A stretch of DNA of 64,000 nt, taken from the NCBI GenBank assembly GCA_964523545.1, contig CAZFZM010000007.1:33777-97776 (forward strand), written 5' to 3'. The notes under the pieces were generated by a model. That model saw only the letters and a program-made list of their open reading frames with translations, did no database searches and was not told the origin of the DNA. Positions within the stretch are counted from its first letter, which is position 1, and each line of letters opens with the position of its first letter. This document shows positions 43,443 through 64,000 of this stretch, one piece after another. The translations under genes were made by a program, and so were the position numbers. The stretch comes from an uncultured Thermotogae bacterium. GTDB lineage: Bacteria; Bipolaricaulota; Bipolaricaulia; UBA7950; UBA9294.

Positions 43443-43552
43443 GCTGTCGCTGTCCCGCTCCCTTCAGCGGACGATGAGATCCGCGTATCAAGTATATCGG
43501 AATATATGCCGAAACGAATTGCCCGATAAGTGAAGGGCGCGTGGTGCCGCCG

Positions 43553-44500: not shown

Positions 44501-44714
44501 TGCTCGTCACCTTCCTCATCGCGCGCGCTGCGCCCGAACCCGCCTTCCACGCAGACGCCGCCACATCGGGCTCACACCGGAGACGAGTGCGCGGAGGCGA
44601 TTCGCGCGAGTATAATCCTGCACCGCCGGGAAGGCGTCGAGCGAACGCCCCACGTTCGGGGACGGCCAACCACACCGGCTGAAAGGCTCTGCTGCGAATC
44701 GAAGGAGGAGACCC

Positions 44715-45647: not shown

Positions 45648-45692
45648 CCGCCGGGAGCGGCGCGGCCGGCTGTCCGTCCCGAGACTCCGGCG

Positions 45693-46319: not shown

Positions 46320-46359
46320 GGTCGGTCCTCCTCCTTCGCGATGCGCACCATCGCGCTCC

Positions 46360-47199: not shown

Positions 47200-47340
47200 G
47201 CCGGAGAGGGTAGCCGATCCCTCGCGCCCGCCCAACCGGCCGGGATCACCGGGCGTCGGCACGATCCGACACGGTTCCCGACAGTTGGGCCTTCCGTCGT
47301 TTTTCACGGAAACCCTATTCAGAACTTCGCTTCCTGAAGA

Positions 47341-47370
47341 TTGACATCCGCGCGCGGCAAACCATATAAT
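47341..47370 (+). promoter_or_regulatory. Perfect consensus sigma70 promoter TTGACA-N18-TATAAT upstream of the Na/Pi symporter
   Basis: ttgaca (47341-47346), an 18-nt spacer, then tataat (47365-47370), lying 32 nt before ATG 47402. Degenerate TTC/TTG hexamer direct repeats sit immediately upstream at roughly 10-13-bp spacing. Confidence 0.5.
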
Positions 47371-47401
47371 CCCATCCATCTATACACTCCGGGCGGTCGC
47401 T

Positions 47402-49006
47402 ATGGATGCGGTGGGGGTTCTGTTTAGCACGGTCGGCGGGCTCGCCCTCTTCCTGTACGGCCTCCGCGTCCTGAGCGACGCCCTCAAGCGGGCGATCGGC
47501 GATCGGATGCGCTCCCTCCTTGAGCGGCTGACCGGGAAGGCGTATCGCGGTGCGATCGTCGGGGCGCTGACGTGCGGCACCCTGCAATCGAGCAGCATGA
47601 CGATGGTCCTGCTGATCGGCCTGATCAACGCCGGGGCGCTCACCCTGGCCCAGGGGATCGGGGTGATGCTCGGCTCGGAGATCGGCACGACCGTGACCGC
47701 GCAGATCATCGCGTTCAAGATCGGCCACTACTATCTGCCGATCATCGCGTTCGGATTCCTCCTCGCCGAGATCTTCCGCGGCAAGCGGGCCGGCGACGTC
47801 GGGCGGATCGTCCTCGGCTTCGGTCTCCTCTTCCTCGGGATGAGCGTCGTCTCCGGCGGGCTGAAGGGGCTGGCGCAGACCGAGGGCGTGCTTCGGCTGC
47901 TCCAGAGCTGTGCCGATCGTCCACTCCTCGGTGTCCTCGTCGGTGCCGGCGTCACCGCCGTCATCCAGAGTTCGTCGGCGATGACTGCGCTCGTCATCGG
48001 AATGGGGAGCGCCGGACTCCTGTCGCTGCCGGCAGCGATCGCCCTCATCCTCGGCGCGAACATCGGGACGACGATCACCGCGCAGATCGCGTCGATCGGC
48101 TCGTCCCTGTCGTCGCGGCGGCTGGCCGTGGCCCAGCTGTTCGTCAACGTCCTCGGCGTTGCCGCGTTCGTTCCGATCGTCGGTTGGTACGCGGGGCTCG
48201 TCGCGCTGACGTCGTCGTCCCTCACGCGGCAGATCGCCAACGCGCACACCTTCTTCAACGTCCTCGTCACGCTCGCTCTCATTCCCTGCGTCGGCGGATT
48301 GGTCTGGATCGTCACCCGCCTCGTCCCCGGGAAGGAGCGCGGTGAGCCCGTCGAGCCCCAGTATCTGGGCGATCAATTCCTCCGCCTGCCCCAGGTCGCC
48401 CTACAGCAAGCGCGCCGCGAGCTGATGCGGATGGGGAGAATGACCGTCGAGATGCTGTCTGCCTCGCGTGGCGCGCTCTTCGAGCAGGGCGCCCTCGAAG
48501 CGTCCTCCGTGTTCGAGACCGAAGACGCCATCGACACGCTGCAGGACGCCGTCGACGAGTACCTCGATCGCATCGACGGAAGCTCCCTGTCGGTCGAGGA
48601 CGAGCGGCGGCTTCACGTCTTCCGCCACGTCGTCGGCGACATCGAGCGGATCGGCGACCACGCCGTCAACATCGCCCAGCGGGCCGGCCGCGCCCGGCGG
48701 AACGGCCACCCGTTCTCGAAGCTCGCCGTCGACGAGCTGGGGCACATGTTCGATCGAGCGACCGAGCTGTATCGCCTGTCGCTCCGCGCCCTCCAGGGGG
48801 AGGATCAGGATGCCGCTCACCAAGCGCTCGAAGTCGAGAAGGACGTCGATCGGCTCGAGACCCAGTACAAGGCGACCCACGTCCGCCGGCTCGAAGACGG
48901 GACGTGCGACCCCCAAGCCGGGATCCTGTTCGTCGAGATCCTCCACAACCTCGAACGCATCGGCGATCACGCCGTCAACATCGCCGGGGACGTGCTGCTG
49001 ATCTAG
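47402..49006 (+). CDS. Na+/phosphate symporter with C-terminal PhoU-like repeats
   Basis: Duplicated Na/Pi-cotransporter II-related membrane domain (QSSSMT / QSSSAMT) plus two PhoU-like helical repeats. Preceded by a consensus promoter. Confidence 0.85.
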   Translation: MDAVGVLFSTVGGLALFLYGLRVLSDALKRAIGDRMRSLLERLTGKAYRGAIVGALTCGTLQSSSMTMVLLIGLINAGALTLAQGIGVMLGSEIGTTVTAQIIAFKIGHYYLPIIAFGFLLAEIFRGKRAGDVGRIVLGFGLLFLGMSVVSGGLKGLAQTEGVLRLLQSCADRPLLGVLVGAGVTAVIQSSSAMTALVIGMGSAGLLSLPAAIALILGANIGTTITAQIASIGSSLSSRRLAVAQLFVNVLGVAAFVPIVGWYAGLVALTSSSLTRQIANAHTFFNVLVTLALIPCVGGLVWIVTRLVPGKERGEPVEPQYLGDQFLRLPQVALQQARRELMRMGRMTVEMLSASRGALFEQGALEASSVFETEDAIDTLQDAVDEYLDRIDGSSLSVEDERRLHVFRHVVGDIERIGDHAVNIAQRAGRARRNGHPFSKLAVDELGHMFDRATELYRLSLRALQGEDQDAAHQALEVEKDVDRLETQYKATHVRRLEDGTCDPQAGILFVEILHNLERIGDHAVNIAGDVLLI

Positions 49007-49216
49007 GTAGCCCATTGCTAGCAAGTTGCTGTTACAGTCGTAGGCTTCGCGTTAGCCTTGCCGCCATGTCTCCCCGCCAACTCGGCAGACGGCAACCGAA
49101 ACAGCATCGTCCTCAACCGCCCCGGTCTTTCCTTAGTACCGTGAAAGGAACGTGGGTGGACGCTCCCTCTTCTGGGAGACAAGTGCAAGGGTTCACAGAT
49201 CTCCAGCACAACCATC

Positions 49217-49930
49217 TCATAAGCCAAGATAGAGCGCACCAACCTGCGGATCCCGGAGCAAGTCACGTGAGGAACCTTGAAGACAGATTCGGCCGATCTG
49301 GAATACGTAGGTCCGATCCGAGTTCAGCAACGCCATCCGGGCGTTTTGCTCTACAAGGAGGACGCTAGTGCTATCATCTGGAATCGCCGCGATTTTTCCG
49401 AAAACAACCTCTACGTAATTCGGTGACAGAGCGAACGACGGCTCATCAAGCAATAAGAGAACCGGACGGAGCATCAGGGCTCTGCCCATTGAGAGAAGCT
49501 GTTGCTCGCCTCCGCTGAGTGTCGATGCACGTCGATGTTGCAGCCGGCGCAGGAGCGGGAACATGGATAGTACATCCGCAAGCCTTTCGTCAATAAGCCT
49601 TCCCCGCCTCAGGGTGTAGGCCCCGAGCAAGAGGTTCTCAAGCACTGACATGGATCCAAAGACATGCCTCTCCTCAGGCGCAAGAACTAGTCCCTTTCTG
49701 ACCAGTTTGTACGGAGGCAGTCCTGTGATCCTCTCGCCAGAGAGCGTGACTGCTCCCTCATTGCATGATACAAAGCCGCTGATGGCCTTCAATGTAGTGG
49801 ACTTGCCTGCTCCGTTTGGGCCGATCAGACTTACAACCTCACCTGCACCTACAACAAGGTCCAGGTCTTCAATAGCTCGTTCGTCTCCGTATCGGACGGA
49901 TAGCCCCTCTACTTCGAGCAAACTTCCCAT
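49217..49930 (-). CDS. livF: Branched-chain amino acid ABC transporter ATP-binding protein (LivF-type)
   Basis: Walker A GPNGAGKST, LSGGEQQLL, Walker B LLLDEPS. GGAGGGAG RBS. Roughly 53% GC. Confidence 0.85.
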   Translation of the reverse strand: MGSLLEVEGLSVRYGDERAIEDLDLVVGAGEVVSLIGPNGAGKSTTLKAISGFVSCNEGAVTLSGERITGLPPYKLVRKGLVLAPEERHVFGSMSVLENLLLGAYTLRRGRLIDERLADVLSMFPLLRRLQHRRASTLSGGEQQLLSMGRALMLRPVLLLLDEPSFALSPNYVEVVFGKIAAIPDDSTSVLLVEQNARMALLNSDRTYVFQIGRICLQGSSRDLLRDPQVGALYLGL

Positions 49931-50182
49931 GTCACTCCCTCCGAAACACCGACTTCCGGCACACAAGCCAGGGAACCCTTGCGTCATCGAATTCTACGGA
50001 TCCAAGCCGTCCAGTTGAAGCATGAAGCTACAGGACGTGGGGACCATGCCCGCTGTGAGACAGACACAGGGCCTTAGCACAGGTCGCTCTGGTCCTTTGT
50101 AGGCAAGACGGCGATCGACGACAATGGGAGTTGGTATGTGGATGCGTATACGGCCAAACAAGTCGATCGCTGAGGGACGAAC

Positions 50183-50866
50183 ATGAAAGCCAACAGGAAC
50201 GGCCCTTTTGCGCGCTTCTGGACAGAGGATTACTTCACGAAGTGGGCGAATGATCCAGGAGACGATACGATTCAGGAATGGCTGCACGGCGAGGAAAGCC
50301 TACTGGATGTTGAGATCCGCAAGTTGGGTCGGCCAGCCCTCCTAGACATAGGATGCGGTTATGGGCGGCACATCTCTCGGATTCGTCTTCTCTGCAGTTC
50401 GATTGTTGGCATTGACAACAACCGGGCTGTGCTTGACAGAGCCATTGCCACCAAGGAGAAAGATAACTGGGAGAATGTCCAGTTCCTACTCCGGGACGCT
50501 CGAAAAACCAGGCTCTCGGCCGATGAGTTTGACATGACGATATGCATGACGAACACGCTGGGGAACATCCCGAAGCGCAAGGTTGAAGCTCTGAAGGAGA
50601 TGAAGCGGGTCACCCGCCCTGGAGGTGTGATCCTCCTCAGCGTGTACTCTGAGAGAGCGCTTGAAGCGCGTCATGCGTCATATGCGCATGTGAAGCTGCA
50701 CATCAAGAGCGTGACTCACAGTGGTACAATTCTCACAACAGAAGGCCTTAGGTCAGAGCAATTCACTCGAGACCGACTAGCAAGGCTTCTGACAGCCGCA
50801 GAGATAGGTGACGCTGAGATTCGAGTGCTCTCGTCGATCTCCTATGCTGTTGTAGCACGAGTCTAG
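50183..50866 (+). CDS. Class I SAM-dependent methyltransferase
   Basis: Motif I LLDIGCGYGRH, motif post-I VGIDNN, PGG motif III. GAGGGA RBS. Encoded on the strand opposite the surrounding liv genes; its 3' end overlaps the livG 3' end by 4 nt. Confidence 0.75.
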   Translation: MKANRNGPFARFWTEDYFTKWANDPGDDTIQEWLHGEESLLDVEIRKLGRPALLDIGCGYGRHISRIRLLCSSIVGIDNNRAVLDRAIATKEKDNWENVQFLLRDARKTRLSADEFDMTICMTNTLGNIPKRKVEALKEMKRVTRPGGVILLSVYSERALEARHASYAHVKLHIKSVTHSGTILTTEGLRSEQFTRDRLARLLTAAEIGDAEIRVLSSISYAVVARV

Positions 50867-51651
50867 TTGCTTTCGGTGTGTAAAACGGCCCCGCTGGAGA
50901 GTCCAAGGTACGCCTCAACTACGTTTTGCTGCAACATTACTTCATTCGGGCGCCCATCGGCAATCATGCGCCCGTAGTTCAGAACAATCACGCGGTCAGA
51001 GACCTGGTGGATCATCCTCAGATCATGCTCGATGAAGAGGACTGTCTTCCCAGCCTCAGCTAGAGCGCGAACTACCTTGTTGATCTTCTCGCGTGTCTCG
51101 GGAAACACGCCGGCAGCCGGCTCATCAAGCAGCATGAGCGAAGCATCCGAGGAAATCGCTCGGGCTAGTTCTAGGAGCTTCCGCTGTCCATGCGACAATG
51201 TTCCGCCAAGCGCAGTCTGCTTGCCGATGAGACCTACCGTGCGAAGTGACCGAACCGCTTTTTCTTCAGCGTGATCTTCCGCATGTTTCACTCTGCGTCG
51301 GCAGAAGACCGCGGGCAAGATCCCCTCCTCAGCGTGTATGTACTGGTGTGCCAGCATCACGTTTTCTAGCACGCTCATCTCACGCATGATCCGTATCCTC
51401 TGGAACGTCCGCGCTACTCCAAGACGCGCTATGCGGTACGTGGACATCTGGCGCAATGAACAGCCATCGAGAAAGATCTCACCCCCTGACGACGATACTA
51501 CCGAGGTGATGAGATTGAACACGGTTGTCTTCCCCGATCCGTTTGGGCCAACCAGCGCAGTAACAGTTCCCTGCCTGACACAGAATGATAGATCGTCTAC
51601 TGCAACGACACCGTCAAACTCTTTACGAAGAGCCTCTACTCGAAGTATCAC
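50863..51651 (-). CDS. livG: Branched-chain amino acid ABC transporter ATP-binding protein (LivG-type)
   Basis: Walker A GPNGSGKTT, LSHGQRKLLE, Walker B LMLLDEPAAG. GTG start. Confidence 0.85.
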   Translation of the reverse strand: MILRVEALRKEFDGVVAVDDLSFCVRQGTVTALVGPNGSGKTTVFNLITSVVSSSGGEIFLDGCSLRQMSTYRIARLGVARTFQRIRIMREMSVLENVMLAHQYIHAEEGILPAVFCRRRVKHAEDHAEEKAVRSLRTVGLIGKQTALGGTLSHGQRKLLELARAISSDASLMLLDEPAAGVFPETREKINKVVRALAEAGKTVLFIEHDLRMIHQVSDRVIVLNYGRMIADGRPNEVMLQQNVVEAYLGLSSGAVLHTESN

Positions 51652-51660
51652 TGCTCGATC

Positions 51661-52530
51661 CTACCTCAGTTTGTGGGTACCCAGAAGCCCCTGAGGCCTC
51701 CACAGCATCAGAGTAATTAGGATTAGGCCGTATAGAATCTGCCTGGCATAGGGCGCGCTACCTGTAGGCAGTCCTACGAAGCGAAGCAGTTCCGGCACTA
51801 GTGTTAGAAGAAGTGCCCCCACCAGGGGGCCCCAGAAGCTCCCCAATCCGCCGAGTATGACCATGAGGAGAACGAGGATTGTTTCCGTAATCGAAAAGGA
51901 GTCAGGGGAGACAAACCTCACGTAATGAGCATTCAGGCTACCTGCGATGCCTGCGATGCCTGCGCCCACGCCGAATATCTTCACCTTGGCACCATAAGTG
52001 TCCTTGCCACACGTCATTGCCGCCGTCTCATCCTCTCGAATCGCTCGCAACACACGCCCAAGCGGGCTTCGCATGATGCACGCAGTCACAGCCAGAACTG
52101 CTGCCAAACACAGAACTGGGACAGGCAGAAACTCAAGCGGCGAGATCAAGTCGTGATTGGCAACAGACAATGAGGGGATGCCCGGAAGACCCAGCGGGCC
52201 ACGAGTCACTGATACCCAGTTTCGAGCCACGCAAGCTGCCAGGAGACCCAGCGCGAAGGTCGCGAGCGCCAAGTAGTCACCCCGAAGGCGAAGTGCAACT
52301 GCACCAACCAGTATGCCTATACTTCCTGCAATGAGAATGCCAAGTGCAAGACCGAGCCACGGAGACAGTCCTACGTAGTTTGATAGGAGAGCAGTAGTGT
52401 AGGCCGCGACTCCAGCGAAAGCAGCGTGCCCAAAGCTTGCCAGCCCGGTGACTCCGACAACGAGATTGAGGCCTATGGCGACAATCCCATACGTAATGGA
52501 GTTCACAAGAATATGAAGAATGTAGTTCAC
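51661..52530 (-). CDS. livM: Branched-chain amino acid ABC transporter permease (LivM-type)
   Basis: 8-10 TM permease of the LivHM family. GTGA overlap with the livH stop. Confidence 0.8.
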   Translation of the reverse strand: MNYILHILVNSITYGIVAIGLNLVVGVTGLASFGHAAFAGVAAYTTALLSNYVGLSPWLGLALGILIAGSIGILVGAVALRLRGDYLALATFALGLLAACVARNWVSVTRGPLGLPGIPSLSVANHDLISPLEFLPVPVLCLAAVLAVTACIMRSPLGRVLRAIREDETAAMTCGKDTYGAKVKIFGVGAGIAGIAGSLNAHYVRFVSPDSFSITETILVLLMVILGGLGSFWGPLVGALLLTLVPELLRFVGLPTGSAPYARQILYGLILITLMLWRPQGLLGTHKLR

Positions 52531-53405
52531 AACTGCTCCCTGGAAGTACCAAGAATCCCTTGGGGGCGTAAGAGCAGGAACAGAATCAGGATTCCAAATG
52601 CGATGGCATCTTTCCAGCCAGAAGAGATGGATATGACGCCAACGTTCTCGGCAAGTCCAACAAGCAAAGCTCCAAGGATCGCCCCCATTGTGTTCCCCAC
52701 GCCACCAACAACAGATGCAACAATCCCCTTGAGCATTAGCGGCATTCCCATAGTGGGCTCCAGACGTGTCTCAAGAGCAATGAGAGCCCCTCCAATTCCA
52801 GCGAGGAAAGACCCCAAACCAAAGGAGAGTCGGATCATCGCCTCAGGATCTATACCGACAGCCCTGGCGCCTGTTTCATCATCCGAAGCCGCGCGTACTG
52901 CCCATCCAACCCGTGACTTCAACAAGAAGACACGAACAGCCAGCGTGGCCATCACTGCCACGCCGAGTATGGCTAGTTGGCTAATCGTTATCGTGCCGAA
53001 TCCCAGGCTGATACCAGCGGCTGCTGGTTGACTTCTCAACAGCAGAGGGCGACTGCCGAATGCCAACGCAAGGGCATTCTGAAACACAATAAGTGTGCCA
53101 AAGGATGCCAGTAGAAACGCAAGAGGAGGACTCCGCCTGCTCCTCAGTGGGCGGTAGACGACGAAGTCAATGGCAATTCCAACAGCCGATGCTCCCAAGC
53201 CACCCAGCAGCAGAGACGCTGCAAGTCCCCAACCCGCCATGTGCATCGCCGCATAGGCCACATAGGCCCCGCACGCAATTGCTGCCCCATGGGCGAAGTT
53301 GAAGAACTTGACAACCCGATATGTAAGTGAGAATCCAACTGCCACCAAAGCGTAGATCCCCGCAGCTACAAGACCATTGACAACCAGTTGGCCAAGAAGG
53401 CGCAT
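52527..53405 (-). CDS. livH: Branched-chain amino acid ABC transporter permease (LivH-type)
   Basis: MRLLGQLVVNGLVAAGIYALVAVGFSL is a typical LivH N-terminus. The start is about 1 nt uncertain. Overlaps the upstream hypothetical by about 8 nt. Confidence 0.8.
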   Translation of the reverse strand: MRLLGQLVVNGLVAAGIYALVAVGFSLTYRVVKFFNFAHGAAIACGAYVAYAAMHMAGWGLAASLLLGGLGASAVGIAIDFVVYRPLRSRRSPPLAFLLASFGTLIVFQNALALAFGSRPLLLRSQPAAAGISLGFGTITISQLAILGVAVMATLAVRVFLLKSRVGWAVRAASDDETGARAVGIDPEAMIRLSFGLGSFLAGIGGALIALETRLEPTMGMPLMLKGIVASVVGGVGNTMGAILGALLVGLAENVGVISISSGWKDAIAFGILILFLLLRPQGILGTSREQL

Positions 53406-53412
53406 CTTTGGG

Positions 53413-54450
53413 CTAGGTGCGGTGCGCCGCCACACCACCAACCGGTTCGCGAAGCCCAAGAAACTCGGCACCTTGACCCAGAGACGAGTCGTTGGGCCAC
53501 CGGCACTCCCTAGCAGCACGACATAGAAGAGCAAGGGATGCCTTTGATTCATCCCAGATGGTCTCATTGCCAATCCGCGGTCTTGCCTCTATGTCGGTCC
53601 TACCTTCGGAATGAACGTACCACCAGACAGCCCTCTTGTCATGCTCTAACGCCACACCTTCAGTCTCCGCCCCCAAGTCGACCATCAGGAAGTCCGGACA
53701 GGGATTGTCCTCAGCACAACCAGTCCTAATCGCAAAGGTACGGAGCCGGTGGTTCTCCTGATCCGTTGCGTGTCTGTTCATCCACTTCACTAGGTCTTCG
53801 AGCACAAGGGGTATGCAATGAACTCTGAAATACCTGTGTAGCTCGATGAGTTTCTCAAAGAACCTGCCTCGAGCCCTGTACGCAGTAGATGGGTAGACGA
53901 GAATCCGAAGGCTGAAGAACCCTTGAGGTGCGCCCCCCTGCGCCAGTGACTCCAGTAGCGCAGCCTCCTCAGCGCGATACTCAGCTCCGTTCTGGTTTCC
54001 TATGCTCATTCCATGTCCTGCTTCGATTCCGGAGCAGCTTCTCCGACAGAATTCAACTACTGTCTTGACTCCTTGTACCATGAGGTAGTAGGTAAACGTC
54101 GGACTCTCCCAGAGTGCGAGCGGCTTGCTTGAGACGGCGCATAGACTGCGCCTGGCAGCCTTCATAGCATCGGTGAGGCCCTTTGCCTCGTTGAGGTCTG
54201 GAACTGGGGTTTCTCCAACGGGTCTCGAGAAGAGCACACGGATGAGCAGCTGCAGGATCGCAACCAAGAACAGAATCAGAATGTTGGCCAAGTAGTAAAA
54301 CCCGCTCGATACAAGAGTGCGGTCGTAGATGTACAACAACACAGCTGCCGCAAAAGCTGCGAACAGGCCAAGAGCCAGACTGCCAAGAATCTGTCGTACG
54401 CCGAGCAGTACTACGACGTCATCACGCATTCGCGGTCGAAGGAACCGCAT
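53413..54450 (-). CDS. Hypothetical membrane-anchored protein inserted within the liv operon
   Basis: AAGGAGG RBS 5 nt before the ATG. Two N-terminal TM helices followed by a soluble domain of about 250 aa, Cys-rich and matching no known family. Lies between the SBP and livH genes. Confidence 0.5.
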   Translation of the reverse strand: MRFLRPRMRDDVVVLLGVRQILGSLALGLFAAFAAAVLLYIYDRTLVSSGFYYLANILILFLVAILQLLIRVLFSRPVGETPVPDLNEAKGLTDAMKAARRSLCAVSSKPLALWESPTFTYYLMVQGVKTVVEFCRRSCSGIEAGHGMSIGNQNGAEYRAEEAALLESLAQGGAPQGFFSLRILVYPSTAYRARGRFFEKLIELHRYFRVHCIPLVLEDLVKWMNRHATDQENHRLRTFAIRTGCAEDNPCPDFLMVDLGAETEGVALEHDKRAVWWYVHSEGRTDIEARPRIGNETIWDESKASLALLCRAARECRWPNDSSLGQGAEFLGLREPVGGVAAHRT

Positions 54451-54477
54451 GGAGACCTCCTTGCTTCCACATGTCAC

Positions 54478-55614
54478 CTACTCGTACAAGAACTCAAACC
54501 TGCCGTTTCTGACTGTCTTGAGCATTAGAGGTTTGACGGTATCGCCGTTCTCGTCGATCGTGATCACACCCGATGCACCTTCGAACCCGACAACAGAATA
54601 GAGTGCATCCCGGAACTCGTCCGCTGTGCTGGCGCCGTCACAGATAGCCTGACCAACTAGCATCATTGCATCATAGGCTTCAGCACAGAAGAGACCAGGT
54701 TCCGCACCAAACCTCTCGCGAAATGCATCCAGAAACTCATCACGCGGTGCATATCCTCCTGCCGGTTCGTAGTCCCACGTAGTGAATATAACCCCCTCCG
54801 CAGCCTCGCCAGCCTGTTGGAGGATCTCCTGGTCATCGAACATCACCGTGCTAAGGAACTGAGTATGCATTCCTAACTCAACAGCCTGTATCAGTATAGG
54901 AATCATCTCCTTGTATCCGACGAGGAAGACGGCGTCCGGCGCCGCGGCTTTGATCTTGGTCAGCTGTGTCCGGAAATCCGTCGCGTCTTGATCAAACGCT
55001 TCGGCAAGTAAGATTGTCCCTCCAAGAGCACTGAATTCCCTTTCGAATACCTCTCTCAAGCCGACACCGTAGTCATTCACGATGTACAGGATGGCAACAG
55101 TCCGCAGGTTCAGAGCCTCGTATGCCTTCGATGCCATCACAGCACCCTCGTAAACGTCAGAGAGGCAAACCCTGAATATGTAGTCACCAGCATTCGTTAT
55201 CTCTGGTGCAGACGATACTGGTGAAAGGAGTACAACCTGGGAGTCCTCGCACACAGGCGCAACCGCCTGTGTTACGGAGCTACCCATCGCTCCTATGATC
55301 ACTGAAACGCCATTAACGTCGATGAGTTTCCGTGCACCGCTCAGGCCTACCTGAGGTGTCAGCTGAGTGTCTTCGTACACTACGTGAATTCGTGTTCGGC
55401 AGAACCCAGCAGTCTTGTCAAGTGCGAGCTCAATCCCCTGCTGTGCATTCTGCCCGTACATCGCACCGGATCCAGTAAGTGGCAGAAGAGCCCCAATCGT
55501 AAACTCATCACTCATGGACTCTCCGCCCCATGGCGGAAAGAGCCCCAGCCAAATAGCGATCCCAGCAGCGATTGCCACCGTCACGCCGATGCAGACACCG
55601 CGCTTGCTTTTCAC
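54478..55614 (-). CDS. Branched-chain amino acid ABC transporter substrate-binding protein (LivK/Peripla_BP_6-like)
   Basis: N-terminal signal/anchor followed by TIGALLPLTGSGAMYGQNAQQGIELA, typical of LivK/LivJ. GTG start preceded by GGAGGGAGGTG. Confidence 0.8.
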   Translation of the reverse strand: MKSKRGVCIGVTVAIAAGIAIWLGLFPPWGGESMSDEFTIGALLPLTGSGAMYGQNAQQGIELALDKTAGFCRTRIHVVYEDTQLTPQVGLSGARKLIDVNGVSVIIGAMGSSVTQAVAPVCEDSQVVLLSPVSSAPEITNAGDYIFRVCLSDVYEGAVMASKAYEALNLRTVAILYIVNDYGVGLREVFEREFSALGGTILLAEAFDQDATDFRTQLTKIKAAAPDAVFLVGYKEMIPILIQAVELGMHTQFLSTVMFDDQEILQQAGEAAEGVIFTTWDYEPAGGYAPRDEFLDAFRERFGAEPGLFCAEAYDAMMLVGQAICDGASTADEFRDALYSVVGFEGASGVITIDENGDTVKPLMLKTVRNGRFEFLYE

Positions 55615-55646
55615 CTCGCACCTCCCTCCAACCCATGACCTCCCCT

Positions 55647-55707
55647 TCTACGCTAGCAGGTCATGAGAAATAATCTCTCTGCTGTAGCTACCCGAAGCTA
55701 GCGTAGA
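55647..55707. promoter_or_regulatory. 11-bp perfect inverted repeat TCTACGCTAGC...GCTAGCGTAGA (39-nt spacer) between the IclR gene and the liv-type operon
   Basis: Arms at 55647-55657 and 55697-55707, about 35-90 nt upstream of the SBP start codon (55614) on the minus strand. The inner loop contains a GTAGCTAC palindrome. Confidence 0.4.
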
Positions 55708-56095
55708 CCCTTTTCGCGCCCCTGCTTCATGATGGTTTCTTGTGACATCCACTGTACTTCCATGACGAAGAAAGGTCAACACCTGAGATACTCAGTTGAA
55801 AGCGGACTCGATAAGGAAGGGGCAGAGATCACCGGAGACTCGGTCCCTTCGGTGCGTGAACGCCGGGGCAGCTTCAAGAAGGCGACTAAACCGATCTAGC
55901 GCTCTCGCTCGGATGGACTCTCCTGCATAGCTTCACCACTCAACTCCCACTGTGCAGCCAAGGAGCCAGTCGTTCGAAGGGACGAGGGACAGGATCAGTA
56001 TTCGTCCTTCAGGCCTGCGATTGGCGGCAATTCGAGCATTGCATGAGCGCCGTGAACTGGCCCCCGAACTGGAAGCCGTGAGCTGTCTCGGCTTC

Positions 56096-56881
56096 CTACC
56101 CCCGTCGCGTCTCCTGCGCGGTGATCTCGCGGGTGATGCGGCGGGCGGCGTCGGTGAGCAGGCCGATCAGTTGCTGTCGGGGGGAGCCCTCTCCTCGGTG
56201 GCGAGGCACGGAGGCACCGAGCGAGGCGACGATCCTCCCGGAGAAGGAGAAGATCGGCGCGGCGATCCCGCGCGTTCCTTCAATCGCCTCGCCGTCGCTC
56301 TCGGAGTAGCCGTTCTTCCGGATCTTCTCCGATTCCTGAAGAAGGATCGCCGGATCGGTGATCGTCGTGTCGGTGAACCGCTCGAGCCCGACGTCCTCGA
56401 TGATCATCTCCTGCTCCGTCGGCTCGAGGTGGGCGAAGATCGCCTTCCCGGTGGCGCTGGCGTGCAGGGGATAGGTGTCGCCGAGGTCGTAGGACACGCG
56501 GAGGGTGTGGTGCCCCTCGACGATCTCCATGCAGATCCCGACGTGCTCGTGCAGTCCGCAGAGGATGATCGTCTCCCCGGTCTCGCGGGCGATCCGCTCC
56601 ATGTACGGGAGCGCCACGTCGCGGAGCGGCCTGTGCGTCATCGTCGCGGCGAGCTCGAGGATCTTCGCCCCCAAGCGATAGCCGGGACGCTCGGACGCCT
56701 CCTCGACGAGCAGGTGCGCCCTCAACGCGGCGACGTAGCGATACGCGGTGCTCCGCGGAAGGCCGAGATCCTCGGCGATCTCGGAGACCTGAAGAACCGG
56801 ACGTTCGACGAACAGGGTCAGGATCTTGACGCACTTCTCGAGCGTGCCCAGCGGGCCGTCGTGCTCCCTCGGTCCCATCAT
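56096..56881 (-). CDS. IclR-family transcriptional regulator
   Basis: N-terminal wHTH (LGLPRSTAYRYVAALR) and C-terminal IclR effector domain. ATG-ATG start preceded by ACGGAGA. Native high GC. Confidence 0.85.
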   Translation of the reverse strand: MMGPREHDGPLGTLEKCVKILTLFVERPVLQVSEIAEDLGLPRSTAYRYVAALRAHLLVEEASERPGYRLGAKILELAATMTHRPLRDVALPYMERIARETGETIILCGLHEHVGICMEIVEGHHTLRVSYDLGDTYPLHASATGKAIFAHLEPTEQEMIIEDVGLERFTDTTITDPAILLQESEKIRKNGYSESDGEAIEGTRGIAAPIFSFSGRIVASLGASVPRHRGEGSPRQQLIGLLTDAARRITREITAQETRRG

Positions 56882-56982: not shown

Positions 56983-58830
56983 TCAACCGACGACGTCCGG
57001 CCGATCCGGCACGTCGTAAAGGATGTCATCCAGGGGATGCCGATACAGCCCCTGCTCCAAGCGGTTCTGGTCGAAGTAGTGGCCCATGAGGCCGATCGAG
57101 CGGCCGAGGACGAACAGGGCGTTGAACGTGCCCATCGCGATCATCCGGTCGATCTCCTCGTCGGTGAATTCGAGCTCCTTGAGCAGATCGACCAGCAGCA
57201 CGCCGATGCACCCGTCGACGTTCAGGATCAGGTTGTTCTTCTTCTGCGTCGTAACGGCCTCGACGGACAACGCGTAGTCGAGCAGCGGCGTCGCGCGGAA
57301 GTGCGTCCGCGCGTAGGTCTTCATCAGCTCGACCCGCTTGTCCGGATGCTCGATCGTGTGCAGCCGGTGGCCGATCCCCTGGATGTTGACGCTCTTCGAC
57401 TTCATGTGGTCGACGAAGTCGCGCGGCGCCATCCGGTTCCTCAGGCCGAAGAGGAAGTGCTCGGCTGCGCCGTTGACCGCCCCGCCGAACCGGGGGCCGA
57501 TCGTTACGATCCCGCTGACGAGCGACGAGATGAGGTCCTTCCCCGCCCGGGCGGTGACGATCGCGTTGTGCGCGCCGGAGACGGCGGCACCGTGGTCGGC
57601 GATGATCTGGACGACCATCTCGAGGAACTCGCGCGCGTAGGCGGGGATCTCCTTCTTGAACCAGAGGAGGCCGATCACGCCGCCGATCCCGAGCTTCCGC
57701 TCGATCACCTCGTCGATCGGCACGCCGCAGTAGTTGTGCACGTCGCCGGACTCGTCGCAGATGGTGGAGACGAAGCTCGTCGGCTTGCGCACGAGCCCCT
57801 CGGCCACCGCTTGGGCGTAGTCCATCGGGATCGCCGGAGACTCGAACTCCTCGGCCGGGACGATCGTCCCGTCGGCGACGAGCTTCTCGTACGTCTCCCG
57901 GATCTTCTCGCCGTAGTCGTCGAACGAGTCAGGAACGATGACGCCGGCGTCGCGCAACGCTTGGTTCTTCGCGTCGGCGGTCTCGTTCTCCGTGCCGGCC
58001 TTCGCCCCGGCGTGGCCGAACTGAACCTGGCCGGGGAGCACCTTGGCGCACGTCCCGGTCGCCCACATGACGAGCGGCTTCGTGATTCGCCCGCCCTTCA
58101 CGGCGGCCGCGATCTCGTGCTCGGCCGTGCCACCGACCTCCCCGAGGCAGACGAGCAGCTTGATCTTGGGGTTCTCCTCGTAGCGAAGCAGGTGATCGAG
58201 GAGGGTCGAGCCGGGGAAGGCGTCGCCGCCGATCGCGATCCCCTCGTACAGCCCGTCGGTCGCGCGGGCGATGATGTTGTACGCCTCGTTCGACATCCCG
58301 CCGGAGACGGAGACGAACCCGACCGACCCGGGCCGGTACAGCTTCGCCTCCTTGATGTTGTCCATCGTGCCGGCGGTGTTGCCGATCTTGAACGAGCCGG
58401 CCTGGATCCCGCCAACGGTCGCCGGGCCGATGATCCACTTGCCCCGCTCCTTCGCGGTCGCGGCGAGGATCCGCGCGTGCCGCTCGGGGACGCCCTCGGC
58501 GATGACGGCGATCGTGCGGATCGTCTCCGTGCCGAGTGCCTCCATCGTCGAGTCGAACGCCGAACGCTGCGAGGCGAAGTTGATCATCACGTCGGCGTCC
58601 GGCCAGCGCTCCGTCGCCTGCGCGATCGTCTGGACCTTGGGGATCGTGATCTCCCGCGTCCCCCAGAAGAACTTCTCGAAGCCGCGGCGCTCGGGGGTGA
58701 TCATCGCGACGACGGACGGGGCGTCCTTGCGGCAGAGATAATCGAAGTCGAGCATCCGCTGCACGGCGCGCGTCTGGTTGCCGTACACGAACGCCTTCGT
58801 GTCGCGCGAGAACAGCTCGTACCGTTCCAT
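56983..58830 (-). CDS. aclA: ATP-citrate lyase alpha subunit (CoA-binding/phospho-His domain + citrate-synthase-like domain)
   Basis: Catalytic His context QFGHAGA, succinyl-CoA-synthetase-alpha-like N-terminal half, and citryl-CoA-lyase-like C-terminal half (GIGHRLHTIEHPDKRV). 615 aa. The aclB stop lies 2 nt upstream. Confidence 0.85.
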   Translation of the reverse strand: MERYELFSRDTKAFVYGNQTRAVQRMLDFDYLCRKDAPSVVAMITPERRGFEKFFWGTREITIPKVQTIAQATERWPDADVMINFASQRSAFDSTMEALGTETIRTIAVIAEGVPERHARILAATAKERGKWIIGPATVGGIQAGSFKIGNTAGTMDNIKEAKLYRPGSVGFVSVSGGMSNEAYNIIARATDGLYEGIAIGGDAFPGSTLLDHLLRYEENPKIKLLVCLGEVGGTAEHEIAAAVKGGRITKPLVMWATGTCAKVLPGQVQFGHAGAKAGTENETADAKNQALRDAGVIVPDSFDDYGEKIRETYEKLVADGTIVPAEEFESPAIPMDYAQAVAEGLVRKPTSFVSTICDESGDVHNYCGVPIDEVIERKLGIGGVIGLLWFKKEIPAYAREFLEMVVQIIADHGAAVSGAHNAIVTARAGKDLISSLVSGIVTIGPRFGGAVNGAAEHFLFGLRNRMAPRDFVDHMKSKSVNIQGIGHRLHTIEHPDKRVELMKTYARTHFRATPLLDYALSVEAVTTQKKNNLILNVDGCIGVLLVDLLKELEFTDEEIDRMIAMGTFNALFVLGRSIGLMGHYFDQNRLEQGLYRHPLDDILYDVPDRPDVVG

Positions 58831-58831
58831 C

Positions 58832-60100
58832 CTACTTCCCCCCTTCGAGCGCCATCGGGACGACGGCCGTCATGTGCGTCTCCGGGCCGTACACCTCGAT
58901 CGGCACGCCGATCCGCTCGCCCGCTCGCCGCATCTTCTCCAGCCCTTCCACGTAATTCGGACCGCCGCGGCGGACGAAGATCCTCACGTTGTTCTGCTGC
59001 AGTCGCTCCTTGTACGCCTCGAGCGCCTGGATGATCCCGGTGAACGTCTTCGCCACGTCGGTGAAGTTGGCGATCCCGCCGCCGATGACGAGGAACTTCG
59101 CCCGCCCCTTCGGATCGGGCGTCCGCGTCATCAGATCGAGCACCGTCTTTGTGTACTCGTATGTCATCTCGGTCGACGGGTTGCCCGAGTACTCGCCGTA
59201 GTTGGCGAGCTCGTCGGCGAAGCCGAGGTCGACGACGGTGTCGGCGTAGATGACGGACGCCCCGCCGCCAGCGACGAGGAGCCACACCCGACCGTCCGGA
59301 TTGAGGACGGTCAGCTTGAGCGACGCGCCCGTCTTCTCGTCGAGCGACTTCACGTACGCCTCTTCCTCCGTCGTCGTCGTCCCGAACGGCTTCGGGAACT
59401 CGATCGTCCCCCACCGCTCGGCGCACTGGTACGCCGCGGTGTCGTCGAGCTTGGCCACCGCGTCCAGAGCGACGATCGTTCCGTCGGCCAGGGTGAACGG
59501 GTTGAGCTCGAGGTAGGCGAAGTGGTCGTCGACGTAGATCCGGTACAGCGCCTCGATGAAGGAAACGACCTCCTCCTGCTCAGGAAACTCCGGGAGCCGT
59601 TCCTCGAGGGTGGCCCGGTCGAGCGTCCCGAGAATAGGCACCTCGATCTCGATCACCGTCTCCCAGACCGATTCGATGTCGACGCCTCCCTCAGTCGAGA
59701 AGTGAATGACGTCCGCGTCGCGTCTCGACGTGAACGCCACGTAGTACTCGACGTCGTGCGGGACGAACGGCTCGATCAAGAAGTGGGTCAGGACACCGGT
59801 CGTCTTCCCGCCGGCCCCCTCGATCGTGACCTGCTTGTTCCTCCGCTCGCCGATCCACGTCTTGACCTCGTCGAAGCTTTTGTCGACGAAGAGCAAGTCA
59901 TTCACCCCGCGCTTGCCGAACAGCTGGTCGGGCTTGGCCACGAGCTTCGTCGTCTCGAGCCACGGCCGCTGCGCGGGCAGGCCGTCGAGGTCGGTGTCCG
60001 GACCGACGAGAACGAGCCGCTCGTCGGCCGTCGACGCGGCGCCGAGGGCCCTCGCCAGCATCCGCTTCGCGTCGTATTCGCGTATCCCTCGTTGTGCCAT
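58832..60100 (-). CDS. aclB: ATP-citrate lyase beta subunit (ATP-grasp, SucC-like)
   Basis: ATP-grasp succinyl-CoA-synthetase-beta-like fold. The 422-aa length and order aclB-aclA match ACL operons. AAGGAAGG RBS. Confidence 0.85.
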   Translation of the reverse strand: MAQRGIREYDAKRMLARALGAASTADERLVLVGPDTDLDGLPAQRPWLETTKLVAKPDQLFGKRGVNDLLFVDKSFDEVKTWIGERRNKQVTIEGAGGKTTGVLTHFLIEPFVPHDVEYYVAFTSRRDADVIHFSTEGGVDIESVWETVIEIEVPILGTLDRATLEERLPEFPEQEEVVSFIEALYRIYVDDHFAYLELNPFTLADGTIVALDAVAKLDDTAAYQCAERWGTIEFPKPFGTTTTEEEAYVKSLDEKTGASLKLTVLNPDGRVWLLVAGGGASVIYADTVVDLGFADELANYGEYSGNPSTEMTYEYTKTVLDLMTRTPDPKGRAKFLVIGGGIANFTDVAKTFTGIIQALEAYKERLQQNNVRIFVRRGGPNYVEGLEKMRRAGERIGVPIEVYGPETHMTAVVPMALEGGK

Positions 60101-60116
60101 GTCTCTCGAACCTTCC

Positions 60117-61421
60117 TTACATCCGCCGGACGATCTCGTCGCCGAACGCCGAGCAGGAGAGGAGCGTCGCCCCTTCCATCTGCCGCTCGAGGTCGTAGGT
60201 GACCCTCTTCGCCGCGATCGCCGCCTTGATCCCCTGCACGATCAGGTCGGCCGCGGGCTGCCAGTTCATGTACCGCAGCATCTCGACCGCGGAGAGGATG
60301 AGGCTCCCCGGGTTGACCTTGTCCTGGCCGGCGTGCTTCGGCGCGGTGCCGTGCGTCGCCTCGAAGATCGCGTGCCCGGTCTGGTAGTTGATGTTCGCGC
60401 CGGGAGCGACGCCGAGCCCGCCGACCTGCGCCGCCGCGGCGTCGGTGACGTAGTCGCCGTTCAGGTTCATTGTCGCGACGACCGAGTACTCGGTCGGGCG
60501 AAGGAGCATCTGCTGGAAGAACTGGTCGGCGATCCGGTCGTTGATCAGGATCTTCCCCTCCGGGACCCGGCCGCCGTGCTCCGCGGTCACTTCCTCCTCG
60601 CCGACGAGCTGCGGGTACTCATTCGCGACCTCGTAGCCCCAGTCGCGGAACGCCCCCTCGGTGAACTTCATGATGTTCCCCTTGTGGACGAGGGTGACCG
60701 TCGGGCGCCGGTTGGCGACGGCGTACTCGATCGCCGCGCGGACGAGCCGCTTCGAGCCCTCGGCGCTGATCGGTTTGACCCCGATGCCGCAGTGCTCGGG
60801 AAACCGGATCTTCCGGCCGACGTGCATCTCCTCGTCGAGGAAGCCGATGATCTTCTTCGCCTCGGCGGAGTCGGCCTGCCACTCGATCCCGCAGTAGACG
60901 TCCTCGGTGTTCTCGCGGAAGAAGACGATGTCGACGTCCTCCGGCCGCTTGACCGGCGCCGGGGTTCCGATGTGCTGCACCGGGCGGACGCAGGCGTAGA
61001 GGTCGAGGAGGACCCGCAGCGTCACGTTGAGGCTTCGAATTCCTCCGCCGACCGGCGTGGTCAGCGGTCCCTTGATCGCTACAAGGTAGGTGCGGATCGC
61101 GTCGACCGTCTCCTCCGGGAGGTACAGCTTCTGCCGCTCGTCGGGCTCGATCGCGGCGATCTCGTCCTCACTGAGCTCCGGATGGTTGACCTCGATCGCC
61201 TCGTCACCGGCGAGGACCTTCAGCCACGCGATCTTCCGCCCGCCGCCGAACGCCTTCTCCACCGCGGCGTCGACGACCTCGATCATCACCGGCGTGATGT
61301 CGACGCCGGTTCCGTCCCCGCGGATGTAGGGGACGATCGGACGGTCGGGAACGTTCAACCCGTCGGCGCCCTTCGTAATCGCTGTTCCGCTCGTTGGCTC
61401 CGGTGCCTCTCGATCGGCCAT
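60117..61421 (-). CDS. icd: Isocitrate dehydrogenase (NADP-dependent, homodimeric type)
   Basis: Conserved IDH family blocks ([21 protein letters not shown]). GAAGGAGGG RBS. Confidence 0.9.
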
Positions 61422-61467
61422 GGTGTTGCCCTCCTTCGGAGGTCGATTCCGCCCTCTCGCTCGCCCC

Positions 61468-63351
61468 TTATCCCGAGATCCCCGCGGTGAAAGCTAGGAG
61501 ACCGCCGGCTCGGACCACGTCCGCCTCGCGTTCGGACAGGTCGTGCACCGCCACCAGCGTCGTCCCCTTCGTGAGGTTCTTCACCGTCAGCTCGGGCGCG
61601 TCGAGGGACGACACGTCGATCTCGAGCCGGTCGCCCTGCTCGACGGCGTCGGTGTCGGCGACGATCGGAAGGATCCCCATGTTGATCAGGTTCGCCCGGT
61701 GAATCCGCGCGAACGCCTTCGCGATCACCGCCTCGATCCCGAGCCTCCACGGTGCGAGCGCCGCGTGCTCGCGCGACGATCCCTGCCCGTAGTTGTCCCC
61801 GCCGACGATGAACCCGCCGCCCGCTTCGTCTGCACGCTGGGCGAACGTCTCGTCCTCGTAGTGGAAGGTGTACTTCGCGATCTCCGGCAGGTTCGATCGC
61901 AGGTGCTGGGTCAGCGGTCCGGCGGGGAGGATCGCGTCGGTCGACACGCCGTCGCCGAGCTTCAGGAGCACCTCGCCACGGAGGACCGGCTCGAGCGGCG
62001 TCTGCCTTCCGAGCGGCACGATGTTCGGGCTCCGGCGGATCTCGACGCTCGGCCCCTCCGGTTCGAGGATCAGGTAGTCGTCGACGGTCAGCCGGTCGAC
62101 CTTGACCTTCGGCTCGGGCAGCTTGCGCGGGTCGACGATGACGCCCTTCAGCGCCGACGCGGCCGCGACCTGCGGCCCGCACAGCGCCAGCTTGCCGAAC
62201 TTGTTCCCGCCGCGGCCCTCCCAGTTTCGGTTGACGGTCCGAAGCGACAGGTGCCCGGTCCCCGGGACGAAGCCGATGCCGATGCACGCGTTGCACCCCG
62301 GTTCGATCATCCGGACGCCGGCTTTCGTGAGCTCGAGGAAGCTCCCGTCCTCCATCAGCATCTCCCACGCCTGCCGCGAGCCGGGGGAGACGATGACGTC
62401 GACGTCGGTCGAGACCTTCTTCCCCTTGAGCATCTCGGCGACGAACTTGATGTCCCGGTACGACCCGTTGGTGCACGAGCCGATGAATACCTGGTCGAGC
62501 TTCGTTCCCGCCACCGCCTCGACGTCGAACACGTTGTCCGGCATCCCGGGCATCGCCACGAGCGGTACGAGCGTCGAGAGGTCGATCTCGATCGTCTCGT
62601 CGTAGACCGCGTCCTCGTCGGCCTTGAGCTCCGTCCAATCTCCCTCGCGACCCTGCATCCTCAGGAACGCCCGTGTGACCTCGTCGGACGGGAAGATCGA
62701 CGACGTCGCGCCGGTCTCGGTCCCCATGTTCGTGATCGTCGCGCGCTCGGGGACGGAGAGCGTCTTCACCCCCGGTCCGGCGAACTCGAGGACGTAGCCG
62801 ACGCCGCCCTTCACCGAGATCCTCCGAAGCAGTTCCAGAGCCACGTCCTTGGCGCTGACGTTCGGCGGGAGCTTCCCGGTCAGGACGATCCTCATCACCT
62901 TCGGGACGGTCAGATAGAAGGGGCCGCCGCCCATCGCCACGGCGACGTCCATCCCCCCGGCGCCGATCGCCAGCATCCCCAGGCCGCCCCCGGTCGGCGT
63001 GTGGGAATCCGAGCCGATCAGCGTCTTGCCCGGGACCCCGAACCGCTCGTAGTGGATCTGATGGCAGACGCCGTTTCCGTTCTTGGAGAACTTCGCGCCG
63101 TAGCGCGACGCGATCGTCTGAAGGAAGACGTGGTCGTCGGTCGATTCTCCCTTGAACCCGAGCGACGTGTGGTCGGAGTACGAAACCGCCAGATCGGCCT
63201 TCACGCGGTCGAGCCCGAGCGCCTCGAACTCGAGCCACGCCATCGTTCCGGTCGAGTCCTGCGTGAGACACTGGTCGATCCGGATCCCGACTTCCTGCCC
63301 CCGCTCCGAGGTCCCCTCACGGACGTGGTCCGCGAGGATCTTCTCCATCAT
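61468..63351 (-). CDS. acn: Aconitase-family hydratase (fused LeuC/LeuD-like, ~630 aa)
   Basis: Fe-S cluster ligand region CNACIG, substrate-binding SDSHT, and fused swivel domain. The start is uncertain between the ATG at about 63351 and a GTG at 63372. Confidence 0.8.
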
Positions 63352-63456
63352 GGTTTGCGGCACGGCGATCACCTCGTTCGAAGCGCCGGCATTATAGCGC
63401 GATTCCGTGTTCTCGAAAAGTGCGATCGACGAACAGCATCGTCTCTATATACGAGA

Positions 63457-64000
63457 TCAGAGGCGATGCCGCCGCAGACACCGAAGGACCTCGTCGATGA
63501 TCGCGTCGGGCGTCGACGCCCCGGCGGTCAAGCCGATCAACGGGAACCCCCCGAGCATCGACGAGCCGATTTCGTCGGCCGAAGCAACGAGGAAGGTCGG
63601 GACGTCGGCGGCTCGGCAGACGTCGACGAGCCGGACCGTGTTCGCCGAGCTTCGGCTCCCGACGACGACCATCCCGTCGACCCGTGCGGCGAGATCACGC
63701 GCCGCGCGGTATCGGCGGACCGTCTCCGGGCAGGTGGTGTCGACGACGGTAATGTCTCCGTCGGAGCGAGCCCTCACCGCGCCGACGAACCGTTCGAACC
63801 CTTCCGGATCGGCCGTCGTCTGGGCGAGGAGCGCGATCGGCGGTTCGATCGAAGCGTCCATGAGATCGGCGGATTCGGTCGCCACGCCGCGTCCGCCGGT
63901 CCGCGACAGGATCCCGCGGACCTCCGGGTGCGCCGGATCGCCGTAGACGATCACGGTCCGCCCGGCTGCCGTGTGCTCCGCCGCCGCCTGCTGCGCTCGG
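63457..64000 (-). CDS. ispH: 4-hydroxy-3-methylbut-2-enyl diphosphate reductase, 5'-truncated by the window edge
   Basis: C-terminal IspH/LytB blocks (QTT, TTCPETV, VVVGSRSSANTVRL). The frame continues to the window edge. Confidence 0.8.
   Translation of the reverse strand, partial: RAQQAAAEHTAAGRTVIVYGDPAHPEVRGILSRTGGRGVATESADLMDASIEPPIALLAQTTADPEGFERFVGAVRARSDGDITVVDTTCPETVRRYRAARDLAARVDGMVVVGSRSSANTVRLVDVCRAADVPTFLVASADEIGSSMLGGFPLIGLTAGASTPDAIIDEVLRCLRRHRL

Follow-up and report, generated by a model that had tools for sequence, protein, structure and literature searches.

Among ATP-citrate lyases (ACLs) of solved structure, the two-subunit ACLY-A/B of the archaeon Methanothrix (Methanosaeta) concilii (6hxi, 6znw) is the best match for both subunits of the enzyme described here, which is encoded next to an aconitase and an isocitrate dehydrogenase (IDH) in a 64,000-nucleotide stretch of DNA from an uncultured bacterium (GenBank assembly GCA_964523545.1, contig CAZFZM010000007.1, positions 33,777 to 97,776 of the forward strand; hereafter "the window", meaning this stretch at its full length). 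The M. concilii enzyme shares with AclA, the alpha subunit in the window, 60% identity, the domain order and the catalytic aspartate, and the mutant in 6znw alters the residue aligned with D539 of AclA. Human and animal ACLY (6o0h, 6poe) has the catalytic and binding residues listed below in common with the window enzyme, but consists of one fused chain that includes a regulatory linker, acts as a cytosolic lyase for lipid synthesis and is not encoded in an operon with aconitase and IDH. The classical ACL of the reductive tricarboxylic acid (rTCA) cycle, AclBA of Chlorobium limicola (6hxj), has the same two-subunit architecture and the same chemistry, but its sequence is much more distant and it is part of a proven autotrophic cycle with 2-oxoglutarate:ferredoxin oxidoreductase (OGOR) and fumarate reductase. 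In Hydrogenobacter, homologous parts carry out the same overall reaction as two separate enzymes, a citryl-CoA synthetase and a citryl-CoA lyase (6hxq, 6hxp). In the window, by contrast, the alpha subunit carries the lyase module as part of its own chain.

The same three-step arm to 2-oxoglutarate is also encoded by the clostridial citrate synthase-aconitase-IDH operon, which has the same TIGR01342-type short aconitase; there, a Re-citrate synthase takes the place of ACL, which makes the arm irreversible and conserves no ATP. One source (PMC7117926) cites Desulfobacter as running ACL in both directions, in replacement of citrate synthase. An ACL working in the citrate-forming or in both directions serves as a functional model for the reading favored below; Desulfobacter is likened here by function and not by sequence, and has a full cycle, used to oxidize acetate or to grow autotrophically.

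Here, we show that the window carries an operon for aconitase, NADP-dependent IDH (NADP-IDH) and ACL whose core is conserved across phyla. We propose, with a probability of about 40%, that this operon serves as the citrate arm of a branched TCA cycle, running in the citrate-forming direction for 2-oxoglutarate or glutamate and NADPH.

Identity of the enzymes

Both subunits carry the domains expected of ACL. AclB matches PF24948 (243.4 bits; cutoff 83) and the Citrate_bind domain PF16114 (289.3 bits; cutoff 26.8), and AclA contains the CoA_binding, Ligase_CoA (PF00549, 64.7 bits) and Citrate_synt (PF00285, residues 390-592) domains of Pfam, with the phosphohistidine loop GHAGA at residues 272-276. 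When compared with proteins of solved structure, the two subunits scored highest against M. concilii ACLY (6hxi; AclA 843 bits to chain 6hxi_B, AclB 514 bits, or 513.8 before rounding, to chain 6hxi_A), followed by human ACLY (795 bits for AclA and 397 bits for AclB) and C. limicola ACL (392 bits for AclA, to 6hxj_B, and 156 bits for AclB). Succinyl-CoA synthetase reached 99 bits with AclA and 50 bits with AclB, and the Hydrogenobacter citryl-CoA synthetase 84 and 66 bits; AclA scored 43 bits against citryl-CoA lyase and 24 bits against citrate synthase.

An identity as succinyl-CoA synthetase plus citrate synthase was rejected, since these scores lie too far below those of ACL, and separate citryl-CoA synthetase and lyase were rejected because of the fusion of the lyase module to the alpha subunit. 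A preliminary description of this DNA had named grouping with succinyl-CoA synthetase and citrate synthase as the outcome that would speak against an ACL; both AclA and AclB instead group with ACLs.

The residues point the same way. E112, H273, H413, H488 and D539 of AclA align with E599, H760, H900, H975 and D1026 of human ACLY, and G306, N345, F346, T347 and R378 of AclB align with G309, N346, F347, T348 and R379. This conservation was computed, and we take the aligned residues to have the functional roles assigned to them in the ACLY structure papers. All catalytic residues checked in AclA and AclB are kept, including the catalytic histidine of the GHAGA loop (H273, human H760) to which the preliminary description had drawn attention. 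Judged by sequence, AclBA is a genuine two-subunit ATP-citrate lyase (EC 2.3.3.8). AclA is 58% identical to human ACLY over 606 residues, and the window ACL belongs to a clade of M. concilii- and eukaryote-like enzymes, not to the Chlorobium clade of classical rTCA autotrophs.

The aconitase, Acn, scored 817.7 bits against the NF005558 aconitate hydratase model (cutoff 612) and 788.5 bits against TIGR01342 (cutoff 719). It combines the Pfam Aconitase and Aconitase_C domains in a single chain, which makes "fused LeuCD-type", the earlier label, a fair one, and all three cysteines of the Fe-S cluster are present, in the motifs GSCTNG (295) and GCNACIG (356). We classify Acn as a putative short fused-type aconitase (NF005558/TIGR01342), its substrate specificity being that of the subfamily annotation. 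Icd exceeded the equivalog cutoff of the prokaryotic NADP-IDH model TIGR00183 (624.6 bits; cutoff 567.3) as well as the cutoff of NF005425 (614.9 bits; cutoff 490). The family and domain matches thus bear out the gene identifications first made for aconitase, NADP-IDH, AclB and AclA.

ACL had also been called rare in bacteria, which is overstated: 7752 proteins scored at E ≤ 1e-20 in our homologue search. One database protein, P0039, starts with a complete AclA, to which a second AclA copy is joined that lacks part of its N terminus and has a degenerate histidine loop (QMGHMAVL versus QFGHAGA); it is not an AclB-AclA fusion. About a dozen further listed matches of 1004-1040 amino acids (aa), including P0040, P0041 and P0047, probably have the same double-AclA form, judging from their size and from scores that are unusually high for an identity of 54-57%.

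Operon organization and promoter

The four genes are intact and lie on the minus strand (Table 1). At the acn-icd junction, a TAA stop is followed by a 46-nt gap with GAAGGAGG upstream of the icd ATG; at the icd-aclB junction, GGAAGG immediately follows the TAA, with 16 nt to the ATG; and the aclB-aclA junction reads TAG-g-ATG, with a gap of 1 nt, the tightest coupling of the three. These gaps agree with the tight coupling first reported. The icd stop had been placed inside the aclB ribosome-binding site (RBS), which is roughly right, except that the GGAAGG directly adjoins the stop and does not overlap it. A terminator scan found no minus-strand terminator-like site inside acn-icd-aclB-aclA. 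Their packing is operon-like, and the four genes are read as a genuine operon. Their third-position G+C content (GC3) is the highest in the window (0.91-0.95), which hints at high expression.

Table 1. Features of the window, with coordinates relative to its first nucleotide
Feature	Coordinates	Strand	Description
acn	61468-63363	-	Fused large-plus-small-subunit aconitase, 631 aa from GTG 63363; open reading frame (ORF) listed as 61468-63372
icd	60117-61421	-	Homodimeric prokaryotic-type NADP-isocitrate dehydrogenase, 434 aa
aclB	58832-60100	-	ATP-citrate lyase beta subunit: ATP-grasp and citrate-binding domain, 422 aa
aclA	56983-58830	-	ATP-citrate lyase alpha subunit: CoA-binding, phosphohistidine and citryl-CoA lyase modules, 615 aa
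iclR-family regulator gene	56096-56881 (most likely)	-	261 aa from ATG 56881; 101 nt downstream of aclA
-10 box TATAAT	63391..63396	-	Predicted operon promoter; 27 nt before GTG 63363
ispH	63457-63954	-	Cut by the window end
ATP-PEPCK gene	18090-19763		ATP-dependent phosphoenolpyruvate carboxykinase
NfnAB- or SudAB-like pair	3222-4790 and 4607-5545	-	51 kb from the ACL cluster
Low-G+C island	49050-56000		52-58% G+C, versus 66-68% on both sides
Liv-type binding protein gene	54478-55614	-	In the low-G+C island
ORF without Pfam match	53413-54477	-	354 aa; in the low-G+C island
Methyltransferase gene	50183-50866	+	S-adenosylmethionine (SAM) methyltransferase; in the low-G+C island
Signaling protein gene	37415-40423	+	1002 aa

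The likely start of acn lies 5 nt past an GAGGTGAT RBS, and both the start codon (GTG or ATG) and the GAGGTGAT site are kept in six relatives. We preferred this GTG with its conserved RBS over the start proposed earlier, ATG 63351, which falls 12 nt inside the gene.

We predict a sigma-70-type promoter for the acn operon. The TATAAT box that had been noted about 20-40 nt upstream of the aconitase start is present, and its position reads TATAAT or TACAAT in five relatives (L001, L004, L006, L007 and L026), most of which also have TTGCAT about 17 nt upstream of the -10 box. In the window, at 66% G+C, TATAAT occurs five times against an expectation of 0.88, a count reached in none of 100 shuffles. 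Comparison with the ORF map places all five sites (29974, 33481, 44611, 47365 and 63391) in intergenic sequence and in matching orientation, about 24-100 nt upstream of a gene start. Owing to a poor -35 region, the acn promoter was missed by a two-hexamer promoter scan of the window, and the call is based on the enrichment and conservation of the -10 box. The placement of the five boxes suggests that the organism uses canonical sigma-70 -10 boxes, which are easily spotted against the G+C background.

Conservation of the cluster

Among species-representative genomes, the nearest relatives of AclA come from metagenome-assembled genomes (MAGs) labeled Candidatus Bipolaricaulota or Acetothermia (78-91% identity). 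Some of these MAGs are called "uncultured Thermotogae", seemingly a loose assignment. From these relationships, we assign the host to an uncultured Ca. Bipolaricaulota (Acetothermia/OP1) bacterium.

Twenty-two Bipolaricaulota loci reach far enough upstream of aclB for gene order to be judged. The order iclR-icd-aclB-aclA is found in all 22, and 18 of them have acn directly upstream, giving the full order acn-iclR-icd-aclB-aclA. At least 22 related genomes at species level have the cluster, and conservation of the arrangement in more than 20 genomes is far beyond chance. The conserved upstream neighbors in relatives are isoprenoid genes (ispG, ispH, hpnC/D/E), while the 10-kb flanks hold no conserved downstream neighbor. 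In the window, ispH lies directly before acn. Upstream of acn, the relatives L001, L003, L005, L021 and L025 carry either ispG and ispH, or ispH, yjbQ and hpnC/hpnD/hpnE, the latter for squalene synthesis.

The window differs from its relatives in the position of iclR. Orthologues of the IclR protein (45-74% identity) are encoded between acn and icd in 22 of the 22 relatives reaching that far, and the window alone has iclR after aclA, adjoining the low-G+C island. The acn-icd gap in the window is just 46 nt, so iclR appears to have been excised cleanly; and, since its relocation is seen only in the window, the compact four-gene block is a derived state. The start of iclR was placed from the beginnings of tblastn matches (q30-48) and a GGAG motif upstream. 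The protein contains the domains HTH_IclR (PF09339, 38.3 bits) and IclR_C (PF01614, 133.4 bits). Its top NCBIfam match is BhcR, at 157 bits, below the cutoff of 350, and no equivalog cutoff was reached. This regulator probably adjusts expression according to the level of an organic acid that acts as its effector.

Outside the phylum, members of the same ACL clade (58-70% identity) adjoin other kinds of IDH. In Myxococcota, Anaerolineae and Acidimicrobiia (L029, L038 and L041), acn is followed by a eukaryote-like type II NADP-IDH (NF006156, 630-647 bits), aclB and aclA; one Acidimicrobiia locus, L041, has a GTP-dependent phosphoenolpyruvate carboxykinase (GTP-PEPCK) gene directly after aclA (11902-13854). 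A Thermoplasmatota locus (L032) has acn, aclB and aclA and, after them, a monomeric IDH (11883-14123; PF03971, 1244 bits), and a Hodarchaeota locus from the Asgard archaea (L037) has aclB and aclA and then an Iso_dh gene (3079-4284). Because several types of IDH adjoin the same partners, distinct IDH genes have been recruited to the same neighbors, and this varied recruitment is our strongest evidence that the three steps are selected together. Selection would act on the citrate arm, not on the whole cycle.

In a descriptive neighbor-joining tree, midpoint-rooted, with no outgroup and without a Chlorobium-type sequence, the Bipolaricaulota sequences form one clade, and their sister group comprises Thermoplasmatota and Myxococcota/Acidimicrobiia. 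M. concilii ACLY groups with an Anaerolineae sequence, outside the Bipolaricaulota clade.

Metabolic role of the cluster

Together, the three enzymes would form a self-contained and fully reversible citrate arm: acetyl-CoA + oxaloacetate + ADP + Pi + NADP+ <-> citrate <-> isocitrate <-> 2-oxoglutarate + CO2 + NADPH + ATP + CoA. The reactions of ACL, aconitase and NADP-IDH are near equilibrium and that of citrate synthase is strongly exergonic, which is why an arm built on ACL would be reversible and would conserve ATP. ACL would probably stand in for citrate synthase, a swap through which the energy of the thioester would be kept as ATP and the arm would become reversible. The main flux would probably be citrate-forming, from the acetyl-CoA of fermentation or of the Wood-Ljungdahl pathway to 2-oxoglutarate or glutamate and NADPH, and the arm could reverse at high 2-oxoglutarate, CO2 and NADPH. 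Such an arm would be part of a TCA cycle that is branched and incomplete, not of a closed cycle for autotrophy; both this direction of flux and the lack of a full cycle in this genome are what we infer.

What has been published on the phylum is in keeping with a partial cycle. An OP1 genome from an oil reservoir (64.3% G+C) has the ACL alpha subunit and OGOR without fumarate reductase (Hu et al., 2016; PMC4725000), and Ca. Bipolaricaulis anaerobius has an incomplete TCA cycle without succinate dehydrogenase or fumarate reductase (SDH/FRD), interpreted as biosynthetic (PMC6092417). Both OGOR and pyruvate:ferredoxin oxidoreductase (PFOR) have been found in related OP1 genomes (PMC4725000, PMC6092417), and reconstructions route 2-oxoglutarate oxidatively, via OGOR, to succinyl-CoA (PMC6092417). 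In Ca. Acetothermum autotrophicum, citrate synthase is present and no rTCA cycle was found (PMC3267732); this citrate synthase fits a use of citrate synthase and ACL as alternatives within the phylum. Autotrophy in Bipolaricaulota is ascribed in the literature to the Wood-Ljungdahl pathway. On the function of ACL in the phylum, we found no statement in the literature beyond one sentence in Hu et al. (2016); the TCA cycle is unmentioned in Coskun 2023, and our search for the role of the Methanothrix ACL returned nothing usable.

Several observations weigh against a citrate-forming arm of a branched cycle. The window covers 64 kb of the genome, and OGOR, PFOR, a non-canonical fumarate reductase and citrate synthase may lie elsewhere. 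The direction of flux is not fixed by anything in the sequence. Classical rTCA organisms also cluster some such genes, and the synteny is compatible with rTCA. The GTP-PEPCK gene after aclA in Acidimicrobiia fits a cleavage of citrate toward gluconeogenesis at least as well, and a major route of carbon fixation or catabolism would likewise be in line with the very high GC3 of the four genes.

The first alternative, which we regard as possible if somewhat unlikely, is a non-autotrophic cleavage of citrate. Amino-acid-derived 2-oxoglutarate, for example from glutamate, would undergo reductive carboxylation by NADP-IDH, be isomerized and split by ACL into acetyl-CoA and oxaloacetate, feeding acetate and ATP formation as well as gluconeogenesis in a peptide-fermenting anaerobe, in a manner that resembles the reductive glutamine metabolism of hypoxic animal cells. 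The closeness of this ACL clade to eukaryotic ACLY (58% identity to the human enzyme), which acts as a lyase, speaks for such a role, as does an inducible IclR-type regulator, typical of catabolic operons. Bipolaricaulota are described as users of amino acids and peptides (PMC6092417), and the window contains an ATP-PEPCK, an M20 peptidase, a subtilase and an amino-acid ABC transporter; the GTP-PEPCK of the Acidimicrobiia locus would fit as well, and NADPH could come from the NfnAB-like pair. However, the conserved cluster has neither a glutamate dehydrogenase gene nor a glutamate transporter gene linked to it, one ATP would be spent at ACL, the published reconstructions send 2-oxoglutarate oxidatively through OGOR to succinyl-CoA, and nothing in the sequence sets this direction rather than its opposite.

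The preliminary description had read the cluster as the citrate-cleaving end of a complete autotrophic rTCA cycle. The step from ACL to an rTCA cycle is not established by what we found, and we consider a complete cycle unlikely. OGOR, PFOR, fumarate reductase, succinyl-CoA synthetase, fumarase and malate dehydrogenase are all absent from the 64-kb window, and the genes identified in the 10-kb flanks of related loci include no further rTCA gene and no conserved neighbor of these kinds. Connecting 2-oxoglutarate with acetyl-CoA and oxaloacetate through acn, icd and ACL is not enough to demonstrate CO2 fixation by an rTCA cycle. The ACL is not of the Chlorobium type (392 versus 843 bits). The same ACL clade is found in Myxococcota, Acidimicrobiia, Anaerolineae and Asgard archaea, which are generally regarded as heterotrophs. 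Fumarate reductase is reported missing both in the ACL-bearing OP1 genome (PMC4725000) and in Ca. Bipolaricaulis (PMC6092417), and the autotrophy of the phylum is credited to the Wood-Ljungdahl pathway. According to a survey of enzymes that cleave citrate, few of the taxa with ACL possess the rTCA cycle in full, and ACL has been passed on horizontally (bioRxiv 10.1101/2022.10.25.513756).

Nevertheless, a complete cycle would account for a genuine ACL with intact catalytic residues, encoded together with the two preceding steps of the cycle in what is predicted to be one transcript, and for the strong expression that the very high GC3 suggests. The presence of OGOR and PFOR in related OP1 genomes and of NfnAB and ATP-PEPCK in the window would agree with it, and MAG surveys use aclAB as a routine rTCA marker (PMC9586279; PMC11287216).

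The NfnAB- or SudAB-like pair had been offered earlier as suited to the ferredoxin and NADPH economy of a reductive metabolism. The pair exists, one protein having Fer4_20 and Pyr_redox_2 domains and the other DHODB_Fe-S_bind and NAD_binding_1 domains. We rejected it as supporting evidence, since it lies far from the cluster and is a general enzyme, common in anaerobes. Other metabolic genes in the window, besides that for ATP-PEPCK, encode GAPDH, transketolase and transaldolase.

A catabolism of external citrate or isocitrate, in which ACL would replace the citrate lyase CitDEF and IclR would be a citrate-responsive switch, is very improbable. In its favor, ACL does cleave citrate, and every relative has an IclR regulator gene within the cluster. 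Against it, neither the window cluster nor the neighbors conserved across relatives include a transporter for citrate or tricarboxylates, and IDH would be superfluous for citrate fermentation, yet some type of IDH accompanies the cluster in almost every lineage.

Implications for aclAB as a marker

A single sentence published in 2016 had recorded ACL in Acetothermia (PMC4725000). Close homologues are already named "ATP citrate synthase [Candidatus Bipolaricaulota bacterium]" by NCBI, and both the family and the structure of the enzyme have been well described. In the searchable literature, we found no account of different types of IDH being recruited to the module, nor of the caution that follows for the aclAB marker.

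This caution concerns the routine use of aclA and aclB as a single marker that assigns MAGs to reductive-TCA autotrophy. Here, genuine acl genes occur in Bipolaricaulota, for which carbon fixation is credited to the Wood-Ljungdahl pathway and fumarate reductase is missing from the published genomes; conservation across phyla extends only to the three steps that link 2-oxoglutarate with acetyl-CoA and oxaloacetate. If ACL replaces citrate synthase there, conserving ATP and allowing reversal, many assignments of autotrophy made from this marker in sediment and subsurface surveys would have to be reconsidered. The clade is also the prokaryotic one nearest to eukaryotic ACLY, and thus bears on the origin of the eukaryotic enzyme.

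More tentatively, and as a generalization that we would not yet expect to hold, acn and aclBA may form a laterally spreading and self-sufficient cassette for a reversible citrate arm that has independently acquired IDH genes across phyla. Such a cassette would replace citrate synthase in energy-starved anaerobes (Bipolaricaulota, Thermoplasmatota, Asgard archaea and Methanothrix), where the formation of citrate would yield ATP and could be reversed on demand. The aclAB marker would then systematically mislabel these organisms as rTCA autotrophs, and the clade nearest to eukaryotic ACLY would be ancestrally non-carbon-fixing.

The low-G+C island and other features of the window

Directly downstream of iclR, the window enters an island of low G+C content (Table 1). 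It holds a minus-strand operon for a Liv-type branched-chain amino-acid ABC transporter, comprising the binding protein, two permeases and two ATPases, with an ORF that has no Pfam match between the binding protein gene and the first permease gene. The SAM methyltransferase gene lies on the plus strand of the same island.

One relative, L026, has about 8 kb of additional synteny with the window: its genes matching positions 40999-49004 start about 1.8 kb after aclA. From this spacing, the island would be an insertion, or possibly an assembly chimera. A search for tRNA genes and flanking repeats that might account for the island and for the moved iclR gene found no tRNA genes, and the repeats it found are only short and chance-like.

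Beyond the island, the window encodes a large signaling protein with four or five PAS domains, a GAF domain and a C-terminal GGDEF diguanylate cyclase domain.

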